From Escherichia phage vB-Eco-KMB37: a stretch of DNA of 64,000 nucleotides. The translations under genes were made by a program, and so were the position numbers. Of the stretch, positions 9,794-17,840 are shown piece after piece (the stretch's first letter is position 1; every line of letters begins with the position of its first letter). The DNA is taken from the sequence record OR525700. One strand, written 5' to 3'. The notes under the pieces were generated by a model, which did no database searches, had not been told where the DNA came from, and was given only the letters and a program-made list of their open reading frames with translations.

Positions 9794-10011
9794 TTATACA
9801 CAAGAGTTTGAATTTCTTCCATCAAATCTTCAAGATCTGTATCAACATATTCAGAAGATGTTGCCATAAAGTATGTAATCATTGTGAACCCTTCCGAAGA
9901 AAGGGCATCAAGGATATCATTAAACATATCTTCCATTTCAGTATTCTCACCAAATGAAAATAACATTTGTTGATCTTCGCTTACACCTTTAACATAGATA
10001 GCTGTGCTCAT
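9787..10011 (-). CDS. Hypothetical small acidic protein
   Basis: 74 aa, rich in D/E. Confidence 0.35.
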   Translation of the reverse strand: MSTAIYVKGVSEDQQMLFSFGENTEMEDMFNDILDALSSEGFTMITYFMATSSEYVDTDLEDLMEEIQTLVYNW

Positions 10012-10014
10012 ATA

Positions 10015-10335
10015 TTAATCCTTAAGACGTTCATTTAAATCTGTAATAACATCATTTAAATCTTCACATTCCAGTGTTAACTCTGAAACTTGTTCATTCA
10101 AACAAGAAACTTCTTCGTTTAGATCTGAAATAATGTTTTCTAATGAATCTACTTGGTCATCATATGCACGTTTTGTTTCTTCAAGTTCTTCCGTAAGATC
10201 ATTAATCAAACGGAGCAAAGATAAGATATAGCCGTCTCCTGTCTCGTTCCTCCACTCACTTCCGTAGCGATAAATAATAATTTCACCATCATCGACTACT
10301 GTAAAATACTTACCTTCACCAGAATAAATTTCCAT
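10015..10335 (-). CDS. Highly acidic coiled-coil protein (candidate DNA mimic / anti-defence)
   Basis: 106 aa, roughly 30 percent D+E, heptad-like LxxL/E-rich C-terminal half. Confidence 0.4.
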   Translation of the reverse strand: MEIYSGEGKYFTVVDDGEIIIYRYGSEWRNETGDGYILSLLRLINDLTEELEETKRAYDDQVDSLENIISDLNEEVSCLNEQVSELTLECEDLNDVITDLNERLKD

Positions 10336-10343
10336 ACACTCTC

Positions 10344-10748
10344 CTATTGTAGCTTAAGTGAACTGCGAAGACGTTTCTCTTGCTGATCACGAATATGTTG
10401 TGGAACCTCATGAATTGAGTCGTTACCGTGCCTATTTTCAACAACTAAAGAGATAACTTGATAACCAAACTCTTCAGCAAGAGTTAAATAAGGTTTAAGT
10501 TCTTTCTCTGTGGTTGAAGTGTTAGAGACAATAATCTTTTTAATATTAGATGCCATAGCATCACGAACAATACTCTGACACCATGCGTGGGCTTTACCTA
10601 CATTTTCTGGCTTCCAATCGTAAACACCACTTTCTGTGTAATGGTATTGATCTGCCTCACAGATAGGCCAATAACCTTCAGAAATAATTTCTGCTACTGT
10701 AGATTTACCTGCACCTGAAACACCACGTAAAATGATAAGTTGTTTCAT
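10344..10748 (-). CDS. P-loop polynucleotide kinase-like protein
   Basis: ILRGVSGAGKSTVA Walker A in a 134-aa protein, resembling the T4 Pnk kinase domain. Confidence 0.55.
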   Translation of the reverse strand: MKQLIILRGVSGAGKSTVAEIISEGYWPICEADQYHYTESGVYDWKPENVGKAHAWCQSIVRDAMASNIKKIIVSNTSTTEKELKPYLTLAEEFGYQVISLVVENRHGNDSIHEVPQHIRDQQEKRLRSSLKLQ

Positions 10749-11681
10749 TTAGCCTCCAAAGAAGTTTTCTATTTCTTTACGTCGCTCTTGTGGATCTAGA
10801 GCAGCCCATTGAACCTTCGTAAAGTTATTTCTAAGCCATTCTAGCAAAGTATAATATTCTTCGTCAACAATTTGTTTAGCATTATTTGGGTTGTCCCAAA
10901 TCATATCCCACTTCTTATTGCCACCACGCATAAGGAACTTCTTAGCAAGATAGTATGGTGACTTAATCTTTAAGAGTAAGTTAAACGGGTAGTTTGTTTC
11001 ACGAACAACAAAGCCTTCGTGTCTACAATGTTTAGACATTTCAACAACATCTGAAAATTTAATCATCGGATAAACTTCAGGACGTTTAAATTTTGTAATA
11101 GATGCAATCCCATCAAGAACACCTTCAGGTAACATGAAACTTGTCCCATCAAGATTTTGAATTCTTGCTCCAATTAAGTATGCGCCTGGTTCTTCTTCGA
11201 CAATATGTGGATCAGAAGGATCACAGATTTCAAAAAGGAAAGTTGCTTTTGCACTTTCTGTCCACTTAATGAAATACTCTATGTCATCACATTCGGAAAC
11301 AATACGGTTCTTGGCAATAGTTGCAAAGTCTGACTCTAGGCTCCCTGTTGTTGATACAACAAGTTGCCCTTTGTACACACCTACAGATGCCATAAAACCG
11401 TTTACTTTACGGACAGCATCTACAATTTCGTCTGCTGGAAGATCTGTACCATTTTCAAAACGATTAAAAATTTTAGTAAAAGGCCAAATAACAACATTGT
11501 CTTCTGAGTCAACAACCAACCCACGACAATCTAAAAGTCGTTTGTCAACGTTCCACAAGTTATCCCAGAATACATTGTTTTTGTATTTAAGTACAGCAAG
11601 ACCAGCATACTCTCCAGATTTAACTTCTTTTTTATGCACTAAACCTTTTGCAATCAGGTCATCACAATTGAACTTAGCCAC
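10749..11681 (-). CDS. Putative RNA ligase (covalent nucleotidyltransferase)
   Basis: Motif I RKVNGFMA (KxNG), motif IV-like EGFVVRE, motif V-like LLLKIKSPYY; distinct from the DNA ligase at 8488..9651. Confidence 0.5.
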   Translation of the reverse strand: MAKFNCDDLIAKGLVHKKEVKSGEYAGLAVLKYKNNVFWDNLWNVDKRLLDCRGLVVDSEDNVVIWPFTKIFNRFENGTDLPADEIVDAVRKVNGFMASVGVYKGQLVVSTTGSLESDFATIAKNRIVSECDDIEYFIKWTESAKATFLFEICDPSDPHIVEEEPGAYLIGARIQNLDGTSFMLPEGVLDGIASITKFKRPEVYPMIKFSDVVEMSKHCRHEGFVVRETNYPFNLLLKIKSPYYLAKKFLMRGGNKKWDMIWDNPNNAKQIVDEEYYTLLEWLRNNFTKVQWAALDPQERRKEIENFFGG

Positions 11682-11682
11682 C

Positions 11683-12234
11683 TTAATCTCCTTTGATTAT
11701 CTTATGATGATCTACAACAACAATATCACGCTTATCCATAATAGAGATGATTTCGTCAAAATGCAAGATTTTCCCGTGTGCATCCCAACCAACATCCAAC
11801 ATTTTCCCATACAAATGATCAGGGAATGATCCGTGAGAGTGTCCGTGTAGCATGATTGATCCATGCCCTTGTTTATTCCAGGCAGCCATAGGGTAATGAC
11901 TTAAGACGAAGAACAGCTTCTGATATTTCACTTCGTCATAATACACAACTTCTCCATACTCTGCAAGCACTTTTCTGTGTTTGCTGTAATCATGGTTCCC
12001 AACACAGTAAGTAATATCCCCTTGGAGACGGGAAGCAATCTTACGGGTATCTTCTTCAGTCCCGAAACAGAAGTCCCCAAGATGGTACATCTTTACTCCT
12101 GGTGTTGTGGCACATTTATTCCATGCTTCGATCAGTGCTTCTGTCATATGCTCCATATCTTCCCACGGACGATATTCAGGAGCAAACTCTCGGATACGTT
12201 TGTGCATAAAATGCAAATCACTTGTAATAAACAT
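11683..12234 (-). CDS. Calcineurin-like metallophosphoesterase
   Basis: DLHFMH, GDFCFG, GNHD, and HGHSHG motifs (DxH...GDxxD...GNH[DE]...GH.H). Confidence 0.7.
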   Translation of the reverse strand: MFITSDLHFMHKRIREFAPEYRPWEDMEHMTEALIEAWNKCATTPGVKMYHLGDFCFGTEEDTRKIASRLQGDITYCVGNHDYSKHRKVLAEYGEVVYYDEVKYQKLFFVLSHYPMAAWNKQGHGSIMLHGHSHGSFPDHLYGKMLDVGWDAHGKILHFDEIISIMDKRDIVVVDHHKIIKGD

Positions 12235-12596
12235 TAGTATAATCCCTCGCTGAATAGTTCACTGTTGTGACCATTTCTTTCGTAGTTAATTTGTTTGGCG
12301 TTATCTGCAATGATATAAGCATCTTTGCGACTCCACCAGTTATAATACTGATCAATAAACCCTTGATTATCAGGTAAGCAAAACAGTTTATCGATCAATC
12401 CTGCATCTTTTAAAACATTAAGTTGTGCAGATAGTACAGGATTTGCATGCCTAACACAAGGAATAATTAACTCTTCGCCATTGTTAAGAATATACTTGTT
12501 CGCAGCGCAGACTATAACACGTTGAGCATAGTGATCCTCACCAATCCAAGTGAGAGGTTGGTAACAAATATCATGTTGATTAGTAGCGCACATCAA
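12234..12596 (-). CDS. Hypothetical protein
   Basis: 120-aa ORF. Confidence 0.4.
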   Translation of the reverse strand: MMCATNQHDICYQPLTWIGEDHYAQRVIVCAANKYILNNGEELIIPCVRHANPVLSAQLNVLKDAGLIDKLFCLPDNQGFIDQYYNWWSRKDAYIIADNAKQINYERNGHNSELFSEGLY

Positions 12597-12751
12597 TTTT
12601 CTCCATACTCTTTTAATTTATCAGCGAAAAAACTGTAATCAGGAAGTAAAAGATCATTACTCGTATCGCTCCAGTTCTCTTCCTCTCTATAGATAAAATG
12701 CCCTTCATCCTCTTCTTGCTCTGACCAAACTGAATAATGCATAATACCTAC

Positions 12752-13126
12752 TTAATAGTTAACACGTTTAATTTCAACACCATAGGATGAAATAAAATTT
12801 TCCTTAGCTAACATATATTTACCAGCAGCAGAAGGATTTGATGTATGAACATAGATAGTTTTAAGAGCATCCCATTCACCCGCGTACAACATACATTCTA
12901 CATCCAAGAACGCATGATATCCTTCTTGATCTTCTCCAAGATCATTATCGAAGTGTATCTCTGAGATAGTATTGAAATTATCTTCATCTGAAACAAAAGA
13001 TGACCAATCCTCAAAAGATTTTAACCAAATGGCATCCTCATAACCATAATCTTTAGGATTTCTTAAATCGTCTAACCAAAGAATTTTAGCCACTATCAAC
13101 CTCCTTCCTGTTTCTCTTCTTTCCAA
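12752..13126 (-). CDS. Hypothetical protein
   Basis: 124-aa ORF, acidic. Confidence 0.4.
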   Translation of the reverse strand: MERRETGRRLIVAKILWLDDLRNPKDYGYEDAIWLKSFEDWSSFVSDEDNFNTISEIHFDNDLGEDQEGYHAFLDVECMLYAGEWDALKTIYVHTSNPSAAGKYMLAKENFISSYGVEIKRVNY

Positions 13127-13287
13127 GTTTTACCTTTATCTACCAATTTCTTAGAAACAGCAAATCTTTCCCCATTGATATAAAACAAATAAAGAATAAA
13201 GGATTTTCCTATAGTTACAGTATCTACTACTTCTACACGCTTCACACCTTGCATGTATTTGGCTTTACCTGAATAAATAAGAAACAT
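13096..13287 (-). CDS. Hypothetical small protein
   Basis: 63-aa ORF. Confidence 0.3.
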   Translation of the reverse strand: MFLIYSGKAKYMQGVKRVEVVDTVTIGKSFILYLFYINGERFAVSKKLVDKGKTWKEEKQEGG

Positions 13288-13565
13288 TACTTATTCCTTT
13301 TGTTGTTGATCACATCTAAAGCTGTGTAAGGCTTGTTTGTACCGCTGTATTCAAGAATAATTGGTACATATTCATAGACCAACTCAAAAGTGCCATACAC
13401 AGAATCTGCAACTGAAATAAGCATTTCAGTGCCTTCGTCGTTCTTAATTAATGAAAATCTTGCCCCTGGTTTATTGAGCACTTCATATTTCTTACCTGCT
13501 GTCAGCAAACCTGAATACCATTCATTTTGCACAACAGACAAACACTTCAGATATGTTTTTCTCAT
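13287..13565 (-). CDS. Hypothetical protein
   Basis: 92-aa ORF. Confidence 0.4.
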   Translation of the reverse strand: MRKTYLKCLSVVQNEWYSGLLTAGKKYEVLNKPGARFSLIKNDEGTEMLISVADSVYGTFELVYEYVPIILEYSGTNKPYTALDVINNKRNK

Positions 13566-13903
13566 TTCTTTTTGCTCCTTCTTTTAGGCTTCTCGTACAA
13601 ACCTAACACAGCCGATTCTTTTGCACAAATAGGAACTGACTTCATTCCTCGTTTTTTAGCTTCTGGTAGATTCAAAACCCACCAGCCAAACCAGTACAAT
13701 TCATCCTCTGTAAAAGGATCTGCCATAGGATCTGCATCACGTTCTTCAAATTTAGCAAGAGCTTCTTCTATCTTTTCTATTGGAGTATCAAAGACAAAAG
13801 CCTCTGTGTCAAATTTTTGTTTCTTAGGAGCGGCTTTTGCCGCCCCATCTTTAGATGCGTGCTTTGTTACGGATCGCTTCTTCGGTGTTTTCGCCATCAA
13901 CAA
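13562..13903 (-). CDS. Hypothetical protein with basic, Lys-rich termini
   Basis: N-terminal AKTPKKRSVTKHASK and C-terminal KPKRRSKKK around an acidic core. Confidence 0.4.
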   Translation of the reverse strand: MLMAKTPKKRSVTKHASKDGAAKAAPKKQKFDTEAFVFDTPIEKIEEALAKFEERDADPMADPFTEDELYWFGWWVLNLPEAKKRGMKSVPICAKESAVLGLYEKPKRRSKKK

Positions 13904-14090
13904 CCTCCATGCGGTGTAAGAAATCTTGCTGGAATCGCCAATACTGTTGACCAGTCCTTACATCTTCGTAGATCACAACAGGATCAAATACTTTAGATAC
14001 ACCTGCTGGTTTAGGGAAGCCAACTACACGATATAAACCACCTTTACTAATACAAGAATATGTTACATCAGTTAAAATTTCTTTTTTCAT
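13851..14090 (-). CDS. Hypothetical protein
   Basis: 79-aa ORF. Confidence 0.35.
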   Translation of the reverse strand: MKKEILTDVTYSCISKGGLYRVVGFPKPAGVSKVFDPVVIYEDVRTGQQYWRFQQDFLHRMEVVDGENTEEAIRNKARI

Positions 14091-14284
14091 TTCTTAATAA
14101 ACTCCAATACAGGTACGTGATCAGCAGTTAAAGTTACACAATTGTAACTCACCTTTTCAACTTCAGAGAATGCTTCAACCCATAGCAAGAAATTCTCTTT
14201 AGCTTCTTCATAATTCAATGTTGACTTAACAACATGGAACTCACCAAGGATTACTCTATAGATTGTTTGCATAGTTTGATTCAT
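14087..14284 (-). CDS. Hypothetical protein
   Basis: 65-aa ORF. Confidence 0.35.
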   Translation of the reverse strand: MNQTMQTIYRVILGEFHVVKSTLNYEEAKENFLLWVEAFSEVEKVSYNCVTLTADHVPVLEFIKK

Positions 14285-14350
14285 TTATTTTTCCTTTGTT
14301 TAAAATGTGTTAAACAATCGCAAATGCTTGTGACGCACTTTGTGATTCCA

Positions 14351-14719
14351 CTAATTAATGTCAGCACTATGATTGTTGAGAGTATAGGATACTCCATCGC
14401 CCAAGTCAACATGAATCTCAACTCCTAACTGTCTTTCTAATGGTAAACGTTTTGAGAATTGATAATTACAAAGTTTACAGTCTAAGTCAAGCAACTCATG
14501 TTTGCTTAAACCTGCAACGATAACTTTGCTCCCCACTGTCCACTCAATACCTTCAAAGTTATCTCTTCTTTTCAAAATGTCAAGTAAGAAGATGATTTGT
14601 TGCCATTCCGTAGACAAGTCTTCTTCATAGAATGCAGAACAAAAAGTTTTATCATCGTAGAAAGCATACATTATGCCTCCATCTATTGTTTCACTTCTAA
14701 CGTAACGTGTGACCCTCAT
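14351..14719 (-). CDS. Hypothetical protein (first gene of the leftward block)
   Basis: 122-aa ORF with GGAGG RBS; sits next to the divergent promoter region. Confidence 0.4.
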   Translation of the reverse strand: MRVTRYVRSETIDGGIMYAFYDDKTFCSAFYEEDLSTEWQQIIFLLDILKRRDNFEGIEWTVGSKVIVAGLSKHELLDLDCKLCNYQFSKRLPLERQLGVEIHVDLGDGVSYTLNNHSADIN

Positions 14720-14739
14720 TATTTCCTCCTGTATGGCTC

Positions 14740-14803
14740 TGTAACGAGCTAATCGCCTTTAAGATATGCAATCACCTTACCTCACAGTAAAACTCGTTAC
14801 AAT
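14740..14803 (-). promoter_or_regulatory. Candidate leftward promoter with flanking 9-bp inverted repeat (possible operator)
   Basis: Minus-strand TTGTAA-N17-TAAGGT; TGTAACGAG (14740-14748) and CTCGTTACA (14784-14792) form an inverted repeat. Confidence 0.3.
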
Positions 14804-15074
14804 CGTTTTTAGGAGGTTCAGGTTGTACTTAAAAATAATCCAAAAAGGTGTTGACAAACGCAAAAAAGTATGCTACCCTAACCCCCGAAAAACGCCGAGC
14901 GCAGCGAGGGGGGTGTTATCTAATCTTGTGATACATGATCTAACAGACAACTGAGTAGTCTACATATAGCACTATGTTATGTCTATAATACTAACATACA
15001 TACTCTATACTAACAATAGATTCTTTATTAATTTTATTATTAATTAAATAATAAATTAAATAATAAATATCTAT

Positions 15075-15103
15075 TGACTTTAGATCTATCTGTATGTAGA
15101 GTA
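15075..15103 (+). promoter_or_regulatory. Sigma70-like promoter upstream of the prs-like gene
   Basis: TTGACT -35 followed by TAGAGT-like -10; AAGGAG RBS then ATG at 15142. Confidence 0.45.
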
Positions 15104-15141
15104 GAGAACATAAAGTCCTAACTCAACTAAGGAGATAAACA

Positions 15142-16035
15142 ATGAAAGTTAGTATTCTACATGGTGTTGACTGTTATGTTACTGATGTAGACGTTAAAGT
15201 CTTTACATTCTCTGGTGGAGAACAACATGTTCAACTAGACACGAATCTATCAGGTTTCAATCATGCTACAGACAGAATCTTACTCTCTTTAGAAGTAAGA
15301 TCTGCTAAAGACTTGATGACTTTGGTTATGACTAAGAATGCATTGGACAATATGCTATATCATAAACCATATTGTGTTGATTTACTCATGTTGTATGTGC
15401 CGTATGCACGACAAGACAGAGTGTGTGAGCCTGGGGAAGCATTCGGAGTTAAAGCCTTTGCTTCTATAATTAATTCATTAAATTTCTCACGTGTTATCGT
15501 TGCTGATCCACATAGTGATGTTACTCCGGCAGTGTTTGACAGACTCTGTGTAATACCTCAAGAAGAGATTGCTTACGAAACTTTAAAGTGGAAGTTACGT
15601 ATGGAGAATTTTGCTCTTGTTAGTCCTGATGGTGGTGCTCTTAAGAAAATATTTAAATTATCTAAGAAAATGTCTTTAGATGTGTTCTGTGCAGAGAAGG
15701 TTAGAGATACTGCAACAGGTGCTATTGTTCGTACAGACATTTCTGTACAGGATTTCAATAAGCGTAACCTGATGATCGTAGATGATATCTGTGACGGCGG
15801 TAGAACTTTTATTGAATTGGCTAAAGTGCTACGTGCTCGTAACGCAGGTAAGATTGAGTTATATGTTACACACGGTATCTTTTCTAAAGGTCTTAAAGAG
15901 TTAAGTGAGCACTTTGACTGCATTCATTCTCTTAATGTGTGGGAAGATAACATCCAAGAAGATTCCGGTGTTCTTGTTAAGAATCAGTCAGATTTGCAAC
16001 AACAAATTGTATCTCCATACGTGTGGAATTTTTAA
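15142..16035 (+). CDS. Ribose-phosphate pyrophosphokinase homolog (Prs-like; possibly an ADP-ribose pyrophosphate synthetase of a NAD+ reconstitution pathway)
   Basis: YARQDR and PRPP-binding MIVDDICDGGRT motifs align with E. coli Prs (YARQDRR, VLVDDMIDTGGT). Confidence 0.8.
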   Translation: MKVSILHGVDCYVTDVDVKVFTFSGGEQHVQLDTNLSGFNHATDRILLSLEVRSAKDLMTLVMTKNALDNMLYHKPYCVDLLMLYVPYARQDRVCEPGEAFGVKAFASIINSLNFSRVIVADPHSDVTPAVFDRLCVIPQEEIAYETLKWKLRMENFALVSPDGGALKKIFKLSKKMSLDVFCAEKVRDTATGAIVRTDISVQDFNKRNLMIVDDICDGGRTFIELAKVLRARNAGKIELYVTHGIFSKGLKELSEHFDCIHSLNVWEDNIQEDSGVLVKNQSDLQQQIVSPYVWNF

Positions 16036-16045
16036 ATAATAAGTG

Positions 16046-16074
16046 TTGACAATAGGGAGTATGCTTAGTAAGAT
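16046..16074 (+). promoter_or_regulatory. Sigma70-like promoter
   Basis: TTGACA-N17-TAAGAT upstream of the NAMPT-like gene. Confidence 0.5.
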
Positions 16075-16106
16075 ACTCCCACACTAACAAACAAGGAGAC
16101 ATAACT

Positions 16107-17840
16107 ATGAATATTTTTGCACCTTTTGCTACTGATTGGTATAAACCTGGTCACAAGCAGATGTACAACCAAAATACAAAACTCATTTTCTCTAATTTAA
16201 CTCCTCGTAATGATAAAAACTTTGCACACTATGCAGATCGTGAAGCACGTGGTGTAATTGTTTTAGGTATTCGTCGAGCAGTTACTGATGCTCTTGTAAC
16301 TATGTGGGATAGCTTCTTTAAAATGTCTCGTAGTGCAGCAGTAAATAAATTTTATCGTATGTCTAAAAATGCATTAGGTGCTTCTGCTCCTTCTGCTGAA
16401 TGTTGGGGAGAATTGCACGATTTAGGTTATCTTCCGCTGGAAGTTCGATCTCTGCCAGAAGGTGTTTTGTGTCCTATTGGTGTTCCTGTGTTTACTGTGC
16501 ATAATACTTTAGAAAAATTCTTTTGGTTAACTAACTATGTGGAAACACTATTGTCAGATGAAACTTGGAAGACAATGACTAATGCTACAGCAGCTTTTCA
16601 GTATAAGCGTATTGCTATGGCATATGCGATGGCAACGTGTGATAATATTGATCATGTTAACTTCCAGTGTCATGATTTTAGCCTACGTGGTTTAAGTAAT
16701 ATCGAAGATGGTTATAAGAGTGGTATCGCTCATTTGGCATCTTTCACAGGAACAGATAACATTCTGGCTATTGAGACTGTGCATGATTATTATGGTATTG
16801 ATTATGATCAGTTTGTTGCAGGTTCTATTCCGGCAACAGAACATTCAGTAGCAACGACTAACATTGGAGCTATTGTTGAAGATCTGAAGAAACATTTCCC
16901 ACATCTTAAAGATGATGTTGATGGGCTTCGTTATGTAGCAGAGAAAGAGTTTCTTCGCCGCTATATTGAAGAAATTGTTCCAGAAGGTTTTTGTTCATAT
17001 GTAGCAGATTCTTATGACTACTGGGCTGTCTTGACTCGCATTCTGGTCGAGTTGAAAGATTCCATTATGTCACGAAATGGTCGTCTTGTTATTCGTCCAG
17101 ATTCAGGAGATCCGGTTAAAGTTGTTGCAGGATACAATGTTGAATCTTTTGATAACTATGAAGACCTTTTAAATAATGGTATTGCTACAGCCACTGAAGT
17201 AGTTCATTTGGCTGATGTTAATAAGTATTACAATGTTCTTCAGGATTGCAGTGTTGCTGATTGTATTGATGAAACTTATGAGATTCCTTATTGTGAAGCA
17301 GTAGGTTCTATTCAAATCCTTTGGGAAGTGTTTGGTGGTACTATCAACCGAAAAGGCTACAAGGTTCTTGATCAGCACATCGGTATGATTTATGGTGATT
17401 CTATTACTGTTGAACGAGAACACGAAATCTTACGCCGACTGAAGAAGAAAGGTTTTGCAGCTTCCAATATTGTATTTGGTGTTGGTAGTTATACTTATCA
17501 GTTCAATACACGAGATACTTTTGGTTTTGCTGTTAAAGCAACAGGTAGTATCATCGGTGAACACGAAATTTTGGTAAGTAAGGAGCCTAAAACTGATCCT
17601 GGTAAACGTTCTGCAAAAGGTTTTATTAAGGTTGTTAAGGATACAAACGGTAAAATTTCTCTCGTGGATAATCTTTCTTTTAAAGATATTCAAGATGAAG
17701 ACAATGAGTTAAAAGTTATCTTCAGGGATGGTACGGTTATTACACCACAAGTAGAAGGACGTGATGAAACATTTACGGATATCCGCAATCGTGTTGATGT
17801 AGAGGTTCTTCGTACTATGGGAACCATCCAGGTTGACTAA
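16107..17840 (+). CDS. Nicotinamide phosphoribosyltransferase family protein (NadV/NAMPT-like; possibly Namat)
   Basis: 577 aa; N-terminal DWYKPGHKQMY and overall NAMPT-like architecture; adjacent to the Prs-like gene. Confidence 0.8.
   Translation: MNIFAPFATDWYKPGHKQMYNQNTKLIFSNLTPRNDKNFAHYADREARGVIVLGIRRAVTDALVTMWDSFFKMSRSAAVNKFYRMSKNALGASAPSAECWGELHDLGYLPLEVRSLPEGVLCPIGVPVFTVHNTLEKFFWLTNYVETLLSDETWKTMTNATAAFQYKRIAMAYAMATCDNIDHVNFQCHDFSLRGLSNIEDGYKSGIAHLASFTGTDNILAIETVHDYYGIDYDQFVAGSIPATEHSVATTNIGAIVEDLKKHFPHLKDDVDGLRYVAEKEFLRRYIEEIVPEGFCSYVADSYDYWAVLTRILVELKDSIMSRNGRLVIRPDSGDPVKVVAGYNVESFDNYEDLLNNGIATATEVVHLADVNKYYNVLQDCSVADCIDETYEIPYCEAVGSIQILWEVFGGTINRKGYKVLDQHIGMIYGDSITVEREHEILRRLKKKGFAASNIVFGVGSYTYQFNTRDTFGFAVKATGSIIGEHEILVSKEPKTDPGKRSAKGFIKVVKDTNGKISLVDNLSFKDIQDEDNELKVIFRDGTVITPQVEGRDETFTDIRNRVDVEVLRTMGTIQVD

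Follow-up and report, generated by a model that had tools for sequence, protein, structure and literature searches.

A block of small genes between NARP1 and a predicted RNA-repair gene set in a phi92-like Escherichia coli phage

Kinase, phosphoesterase and ligase make up the classic end-healing and sealing set, exemplified by Pnk and Rnl1 of phage T4 and by bacterial Pnkp. T4 Pnk and Rnl1 serve in tRNA repair against the PrrC anticodon nuclease. In rV5 and Mydo, a neighbourhood with a T4-like ligase, a cREC protein, a kinase, MazG, a sirtuin and sometimes a calcineurin-like phosphoesterase has been interpreted by the Aravind group as RNA repair (PMC9503650, section 3.7.3). Here we compare these systems with a block of small open reading frames (ORFs) at positions 12234-14719 of Escherichia phage vB-Eco-KMB37 (sequence record OR525700). 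We analysed a stretch of 64,000 nucleotides (nt), called the window below; its source is a phi92-like E. coli myovirus, Justusliebigvirus (Stephanstirmvirinae). We read the block as an ordinary set of accessory genes with counter-defence surroundings, best explained as a mosaic that heads an operon for repair and nucleotide metabolism. With a probability of roughly 60%, it does not form a single system but the rapidly changing, promoter-proximal portion of this long leftward operon, in which three kinds of gene are mixed.

The initial annotation recognised eight ORFs, all of which lie on the minus strand at the positions it gave and match annotated genes of phi92 (NC_023693): gp098, gp100, gp101, gp102, gp103, gp104, gp105 and gp106A/B. 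We use the phi92 names throughout. The first kind of gene is represented by gp100, and the features needed to place it are as follows.

12752..13093, minus strand: gp100, 113 amino acids (aa) from a GTG start; cREC_REC domain, predicted metal-independent cyclic-phosphate hydrolase.
11683..12234, minus strand: gp097, calcineurin-type metallophosphoesterase; phrog_547 'phosphoesterase', E = 5e-55.
10749..11681, minus strand: gp096, Rnl1-type RNA ligase; PF09511 RNA_lig_T4_1, E = 4e-14; phrog_562.
10344..10748, minus strand: gp095, P-loop kinase, polynucleotide-kinase-like; AAA_33, E = 7e-10; phrog_2071 and phrog_505 'polynucleotide kinase'.
15142..17840, plus strand: NARP1, with Adps at 15142-16035 (phosphoribosyl pyrophosphate-synthetase-like) and Namat at 16107-17840 (NAMPT-like), by Pfam and PHROGs.

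gp100 is a member of the cREC_REC family. It matches PF20274 with E = 1.1e-13 and a score of 52.1 bits, above the Pfam gathering cut-off of 27, and an identical protein carries a precomputed PF20274 match. The receiver-like paired Asp, the second Asp motif and the Thr/Ser motif are all present, and an alignment of five diverged orthologues leaves W6, D8, D9, R11, D49-N50-D51-L52-G53 and H83-T84-S85-N86-P87 invariant. The two-aspartate site of the family has been described, and cREC proteins are predicted to open cyclic phosphates, both the 2',3' type at RNA ends and the 1''-2'' cyclic phosphate of ADP-ribose (ADPR) (PMC9503650). The genomic context expected of a cREC protein consists of RNA-repair or ADPR-processing partners, never a histidine kinase. 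gp100 fits this expectation: it shares an operon with a phosphoesterase, an Rnl1 ligase and a kinase, and NARP1 is adjacent. The initial annotation had found no recognisable motifs in the block and considered none of its members assignable by eye, which was mistaken for gp100 and also for gp098, a member of the T4_Y16D family (PF26092).

Downstream of the block, an Rnl1-family ligase, a P-loop 5' kinase and a phosphoesterase are encoded together. The match of gp097 to Metallophos_2 is below the cut-off (E = 3e-4), and the metal-binding motifs DLH, GD, GNHD and GHSH are visible. The gp095 orthologue in Bas61 is annotated 'polynucleotide kinase'. Further downstream, the operon continues with a coiled-coil protein, a DNA ligase, a MazG-like protein, RdgC, an exonuclease, thymidine kinase and ThyX. 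Overlaps of 1-4 nt from gp105 through to the kinase were counted in favour of a single operon.

Like T4 Pnk/Rnl1 and bacterial Pnkp, the window places a 5' kinase, 2',3'-phosphate removal and an Rnl1-family ligase side by side, with the activities here predicted. Kinase and phosphatase are separate proteins in the window, and the phosphatase is calcineurin-type, as in Pnkp, whereas that of T4 Pnk is HAD-type. The window also has an extra cREC protein. The rV5/Mydo neighbourhood is closer, with a cREC protein, an Rnl1-type ligase, a P-loop kinase, a calcineurin-like phosphoesterase, a MazG-like protein and a DNA ligase in one operon, as here. The window differs from it in three ways: a search of the window found no sirtuin, the cREC gene has moved upstream of the phosphoesterase, and five extra small genes, including the T4_Y16D (Y16D) gene, lie between gp103 and the phosphoesterase.

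Taken with its neighbours, gp100 is most likely a cREC enzyme that would act with the three coupled downstream genes in the repair of RNA breaks. Host anticodon or toxin RNases leave a 2',3'-cyclic phosphate, which the cREC protein, the metallophosphoesterase or both would open and remove. The 5'-OH would be phosphorylated by the P-loop kinase, and the Rnl1-type ligase would reseal the RNA. The predicted outcome is that tRNA-cleaving defences are undone.

The second kind of gene would comprise two conserved proteins, which other phages also carry beside counter-defence and repair genes.

12234..12593, minus strand: gp098, 119 aa; T4_Y16D/Arn.3 family.
13562..13897, minus strand: gp103, 111 aa; beta-alpha-alpha-beta-alpha core of about 75 aa between Lys/Pro/Ala-rich basic tails.

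PF26092 is found on all 21 of the 21 close homologues of gp098 and on the gp098 gene in two contigs; the local Pfam copy does not return it for gp098 itself. The protein is 46% identical to T2 Arn.3 (E = 8e-23), which is longer, at 153 aa, and has an N-terminal extension. T4_Y16D is widespread (1535 phage records, falling into 1119 clusters at 50% identity), and the domain is C-terminal in nearly all matches. The core of the family reads IVCAAN ... RH ... QGFxDQ ... R(E/D)DA ... Q, with SExLY at the extreme C-terminus, and 40 diverse members share R48, H49, G78, F79, A92, Q101, L113, S115 and E116. Judged from sequence conservation, this pattern of Arg-His, Gln-Gly-Phe-x-Asp and a C-terminal Ser-Glu looks enzyme-like. 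The predicted fold of gp098 had no solved-structure match, sequence and profile searches of PDB gave nothing significant, and ten long homologues showed no recognisable N-terminal domain fused to T4_Y16D.

Public records label the block genes hypothetical, except that some entries give 'anti-restriction nuclease' for gp098 and 'transposase-like protein' for gp103. We rejected the identification of gp098 with the anti-restriction nuclease inhibitor Arn. The match is to arn.3, a separate gene three positions upstream of arn in T2, and the label has been carried over in error from arn, its neighbour in T4. A 2026 preprint gives arn.3 as a gene of unknown function. T2 arn.3 is co-transcribed with the anti-McrBC gene arn, on a transcript reported as middle, not early. 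In the T2/T4 arn transcript (arn.4-arn.3-arn.2-arn.1-arn), as in the window, an Arn.3 homologue stands among small uncharacterised genes beside a counter-defence gene, but the other genes of the arn cluster are absent here.

gp103, present in 341 phage records, is conserved throughout the rV5-like phages. Neither a Pfam family nor a matching fold was found for it, and sequence and profile searches of PDB gave nothing significant (best E = 0.11, ribosomal protein S6). The 'transposase-like' label is unsupported, as no transposase domain or fold was found. The length of the N-terminal tail varies among relatives, and its Lys/Pro/Ala-rich repeats resemble histone H1 tails. The protein looks small and basic-tailed, a shape that would suit nucleic-acid binding.

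The neighbourhood is conserved. In 14 related viral contigs the order NARP1, small ORFs-gp103-(cREC)-phosphoesterase-(ligase-kinase) is kept. In these 14 contigs, all members of this supergroup, gp103 comes in every case just before the phosphoesterase or cREC-phosphoesterase, and what precedes gp103 differs. Mydo and a PVP-SE1-like phage have NARP1 followed by two to four small ORFs and then gp103-phosphoesterase-ligase-cREC-kinase-Sir2-DNA ligase. At one locus outside this subfamily (L205, 7974-11023), Y16D is directly upstream of ligase-phosphoesterase-kinase. Between genera, the gene content of the operon head varies through insertions, losses and a deletion in phAPEC8, so genes come and go at the head, as is typical of accessory regions, while a core stays stable. 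Through its deletion phAPEC8 lacks the genes for the RNA ligase, the kinase and the coiled-coil protein, and it has three extra small genes. phAPEC8 gp137 (L003, 5207-5539) consists of the first 62 residues of the phosphoesterase (95% identical) fused to a gp093-like C-terminus.

Several observations weigh against an RNA-repair operon that includes the block. The hydrolase activity of cREC is a prediction for the whole family (PMC9503650). phAPEC8 retains both cREC and Y16D though the ligase and kinase are lost, so neither strictly needs the ligase. At distant cREC loci no partner is enriched within two genes on either side, and the neighbours are heterogeneous. Y16D of T-even phages has no adjacent repair gene, and other Vequintavirinae carry Y16D far from repair genes. 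In a promoter scan, the leftward sigma-70-like candidates in the intergenic region were weak, the best matching 9/12 positions. Finally, a literature search for transcripts or expression timing in phi92-like or rV5-like phages found nothing.

The strongest alternative concerns the genes on the other side of the intergenic region. NARP1 is an experimentally proven counter to NAD+-depleting defence and rebuilds NAD+; NARP1 and NARP2 are found in only 5.4% of phages. AntiDefenseFinder (BASEL S2 table) calls NARP1 at bas61_0254/0255, the orthologues of the Adps and Namat genes of the window, and Adps adjoins Namat in 80 of 80 related loci. The usual annotations of the two genes are 'ribose-phosphate pyrophosphokinase' and 'nicotinamide phosphoribosyltransferase'. 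In the variant NARP1-AP (Adps-Macro phosphatase Adpp-Namat), the Macro phosphatase turns ADPR-1''-phosphate (ADPR-1''P) into ADPR (preprint 10.64898/2026.01.28.702374).

By analogy, gp100, perhaps together with the metallophosphoesterase, could be mainly an accessory of NARP1 and not a part of RNA repair. It would convert ADPR-1''P, produced by aRES-type defence, or ADPR 1''-2'' cyclic phosphate to ADPR, and Adps and Namat would rebuild NAD+, giving a Macro-independent equivalent of NARP1-AP. Y16D and gp103 might be further parts of an NAD/RNA counter-defence island. We consider this accessory role unlikely. The fuller proposal, in which gp100 with or without gp097 is a new NARP1 accessory and gp098 and gp103 belong to a combined NAD+/RNA-repair island, is less likely still. 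That cREC serves NARP1 is less likely than RNA end repair but more interesting.

Evidence for such a role comes from an array unrelated to phi92, at 9828-12652 of the 25-kb contig IMGVR_UViG_3300047300_000529 (L047). Here cREC (PF20274, E = 6e-24), Adps and Namat are tightly spaced and co-directional, with no ligase detected nearby, which suggests that a cREC protein can act as a NARP1 accessory. The predicted processing of ADPR cyclic phosphates by cREC was itself drawn from context (PMC9503650), and a Macro phosphatase inserted in NARP1 operons does the ADPR-1''P job. Of about 40 distant cREC loci, however, just one has NARP1 nearby. In 11 related loci the distance between cREC and NARP1 is at most 5 kb, but these form one related supergroup and amount to roughly one event. 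In the window the two are on opposite strands.

The linkage of NARP1 with the other genes is similarly mixed. Two loci from other lineages (L093 and L097) have the phosphoesterase, Rnl1-type ligase and kinase, followed by a DNA ligase, contiguous and co-directional with Adps-Namat, so NARP1 and RNA-repair genes travel together beyond the rV5-like group. Among 77 Y16D loci outside the subfamily, NARP1-like genes lie within 8 kb of Y16D at six (L184, L187, L190, L193 and L213, with L089 from the Namat scan), at distances of 2-7 kb; these five to six cases are a small and non-independent sample. At L089 (5139-9539) a weak Macro-domain gene stands between Y16D and the NARP1-like genes. Compared with NARP1-AP, the window likewise has NARP1 beside enzymes predicted to act on ribose phosphate esters, and the L047 array joins cREC to Adps-Namat. 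It differs in that the window has no Macro domain, that cREC and the phosphoesterase are transcribed the opposite way, and that their ADPR-1''P activity is hypothetical.

The third kind of gene in the operon head consists of the remaining small ORFs, which are lineage-restricted and would be accessories.

14351..14719, minus strand: gp106, 122 aa (106 aa from an internal start at 14671); first gene of the leftward array, acidic, with an AGGAGG Shine-Dalgarno sequence; phrog_14390; lineage-only.
14281..14397, minus strand: hydrophobic peptide ORF, 38 aa (43 aa from 14412), single-pass with a basic C-terminus; overlaps the 3' end of gp106 and fills the gp106-gp105 gap.
14087..14284, minus strand: gp105, 65 aa, acidic; phrog_15683.
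13851..14090, minus strand: gp104, 79 aa; phrog_12584; 139 phage records.
13287..13565, minus strand: gp102, 92 aa; phrog_10169; lineage-only.
13096..13287, minus strand: gp101, 63 aa, basic (isoelectric point, pI, 9.6); phrog_15376.
12593..12742, minus strand: gp099, 49 aa, pI 4.1, net charge -11; phrog_18323.

Searches of Pfam, NCBIfam, PHROGs and PADLOC with nine or ten block proteins returned only cREC_REC for gp100, a sub-threshold DUF1653 match for gp104 and PHROGs lacking a function. gp099, gp101, gp102, gp105 and gp106 belong to such PHROGs and are confined to phi92/phAPEC8-type phages and a few relatives. gp102 (121 records) and gp099 occur only in phi92/phAPEC8-type genomes; gp105 extends to the more distant contigs L016, L069, L070 and L074. 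gp106 is found in 132 phage records, is 43% identical in Phapecoctavirus and gave no Pfam, PDB or PADLOC match; a word-index protein search for its homologues returned one close cluster only. gp105 is 55% and gp101 73% identical to the phAPEC8 orthologue. Sequence searches of PDB with five proteins (gp098, gp102, gp103, gp104 and gp106) gave nothing significant.

Three further candidate relationships were considered. Some GenBank records label the gp104 orthologue DUF1653. The match to this family (PF07866) is sub-threshold, at E = 0.077 and 13.8 bits against a cut-off of 23.5, and gp104 has no precomputed Pfam match, so we regard the link as a weak resemblance in sequence and not as family membership. 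A similarity of gp101 to Mydo gp175 and FV3 gp79 (phmmer E = 5e-4 in a tiny database) was rejected at an hhalign probability of 3%. A relationship of gp099 to aRad1, prompted by a common 'WSE' start, was rejected by an aRad1 hidden Markov model (HMM).

The initial annotation had placed the block next to a divergent promoter region, in what it called the classic location for host-takeover and anti-defence genes. The block does head the leftward array and adjoin the divergent intergenic region, and the neighbourhood is one of counter-defence, with NARP1 to the right and the RNA-repair set to the left. The expectation of anti-defence genes fared less well within the block, as no member matches a known anti-defence family. 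PADLOC matched no block protein. AntiDefenseFinder on Bas60-62 (BASEL S2) flagged only atd1, elsewhere in the genome, and NARP1, and none of bas61_0245-0253. The aRad1 HMM, built from seven aRad1 proteins, had no significant match in the window (best E = 0.3). Nor did most members turn out to be homologues of structural or metabolic proteins.

The orphans (gp099, gp101, gp102, gp104, gp105, gp106 and the membrane peptide) would most likely bind or modulate host proteins, in counter-defence or host takeover. A narrower version holds that they are early host-takeover proteins that would halt or divert processes of the host, toxic on their own and not inhibitors of particular defence systems. Their position at the operon head, small size, extreme charge (gp099 and gp101), rapid divergence from genus to genus (gp106 and gp105 keep 43-55% identity) and lack of family matches are all consistent with it. 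The same features fit anti-defence proteins equally well, however, and the surrounding genes serve counter-defence and repair, not shut-off. We think this narrower version improbable.

The nine ORFs, which include gp099, are genuine genes, beyond chance. Substitutions relative to the phAPEC8 orthologues (43-81% aa identity) are more frequent at third than at first or second codon positions in 9/9 ORFs, gp105 among them, and therefore these are real genes. Each has its own PHROG family. Shine-Dalgarno sequences are clear for all except gp099, whose sequence is weak. The GC skew changes sign at about 15 kb, as expected of divergent transcription units, and the minus-strand skew of the block is continuous with that of known genes. 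There is thus a near-negligible prospect that any of the small ORFs is no gene but a frame open by chance within a long 5' leader: their short lengths (49-122 aa), and the lack of a family beyond close relatives for seven, would fit this, but the third-position excess, the Shine-Dalgarno sequences and stop/start overlaps, the unbroken skew and the intact orthologues in conserved order in at least three genera all speak against it.

The count of eight ORFs in the initial annotation was correct in that all eight are coding, but it omitted gp099, and a tenth gene is probable in the 38-43 aa hydrophobic peptide. This peptide is conserved in phi92-type genomes and unannotated in phi92. phAPEC8 gp126 is its annotated positional counterpart, with a common PIL(S/A)TI core; the peptide had no PHROG match. 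The lengths first quoted, 63-124 aa, need amendment in three cases, where the start codon farthest upstream had been taken. With the annotated starts, all of which have a Shine-Dalgarno sequence, the lengths become 119 aa (ATG at 12593), 113 aa (GTG at 13093) and 111 aa (ATG at 13897).

The genes are tightly packed. The sole real gap is the 66 nt between gp106 and gp105 (14285-14350). From there, gp105/gp104 overlap by 4 nt, gp104/gp103 by 47 nt, gp103/gp102 by 4 nt and gp102/gp101 by 1 nt. A 2-nt gap separates gp101 from the gp100 GTG start at 13093, and a 9-nt gap separates gp100 from gp099. gp099/gp098 and gp098/gp097 each overlap by 1 nt, the phosphoesterase is 1 nt from the RNA ligase, and the ligase abuts the kinase. 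The 47-nt overlap is also kept in phAPEC8; through it, the first 15 codons of gp103 share DNA with the end of gp104 in a different frame.

The region between the block and NARP1 was aligned with phi92, EmilieFrey and phAPEC8.

14720..15141, no strand assigned: divergent intergenic region, with an AT-rich centre, a rightward promoter, a GC hairpin and conserved leftward-leader blocks.

The rightward sigma-70-like promoter at about 14851-14885 (plus strand) is a good match to the consensus (TTGACA-17-TGcTACCCT). It is followed by a GC-rich hairpin (CCCCCG...GGGGGG), the two together covering about 14851-14915. A second rightward site is at 15074-15102. phAPEC8 keeps the -35 element, spacing and extended -10 element of the first promoter despite having different rightward genes (small ORFs and a tRNA array). 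The leftward-leader blocks conserved with phAPEC8 are not repeated elsewhere in the window, and an Rfam search returned nothing. The best sigma-70-like match in the region is on the minus strand at 14409-14381 (TTGACT-17 nt-TATACT, 10/12), within the 3' end of gp106, and could be an internal promoter driving gp105 onward. The leftward promoter and the early expression that the initial annotation assumed for the block are putative, the latter drawn from gene content only.

The locus is nearly identical in its closest relatives. Bases 12000-15200 match the best 25 genomes (phi92, outra, EmilieFrey/Bas61 and other Justusliebigvirus) over their full length at 97.4-98.9% identity, and Phapecoctavirus forms a second matching group at 80-90%. 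Compared with phi92 gp098-gp106 and the Justusliebigvirus orthologues (bas61_0245-0253 in Bas61), 8/9 ORFs have 96-100% protein identity and gp099 has 88%; gene order and neighbours are identical, and nothing substantial differs. The block genes and the RNA-repair neighbourhood are already known, the genes having been in GenBank since the phi92 genome and the neighbourhood having been published.

Two points concern the database records themselves. Five GenBank records are titled 'Campylobacter phage' (e.g. MG065639, host C. jejuni), and the one listed is 97.4% identical to the window phage; the host labels of these records look doubtful. The phi92 RefSeq record places a 151-nt 'hypothetical tRNA' within the NAMPT/Namat coding sequence (L001, 7687-7837), which is probably spurious.

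The block itself adds little; its worth is in the labels that can be corrected and the concrete, inexpensive experiments that it allows. Two propagated mis-annotations are corrected, 'anti-restriction nuclease' for a T4_Y16D protein and 'transposase-like' for gp103. Nine or ten small genes between two counter-defence modules, in tractable phages (BASEL Bas60-62), are sensible candidates for screening. The cREC-Adps-Namat array of L047 offers a specific and cheap handle on whether cREC feeds NARP1; if it does, the phage would be able to restore NAD+ even in the face of defences that escape plain NARP1, aRES among them. The large phage family T4_Y16D has catalytic-looking invariants but no structural relative, and learning its function would be of wide interest in T-even biology.

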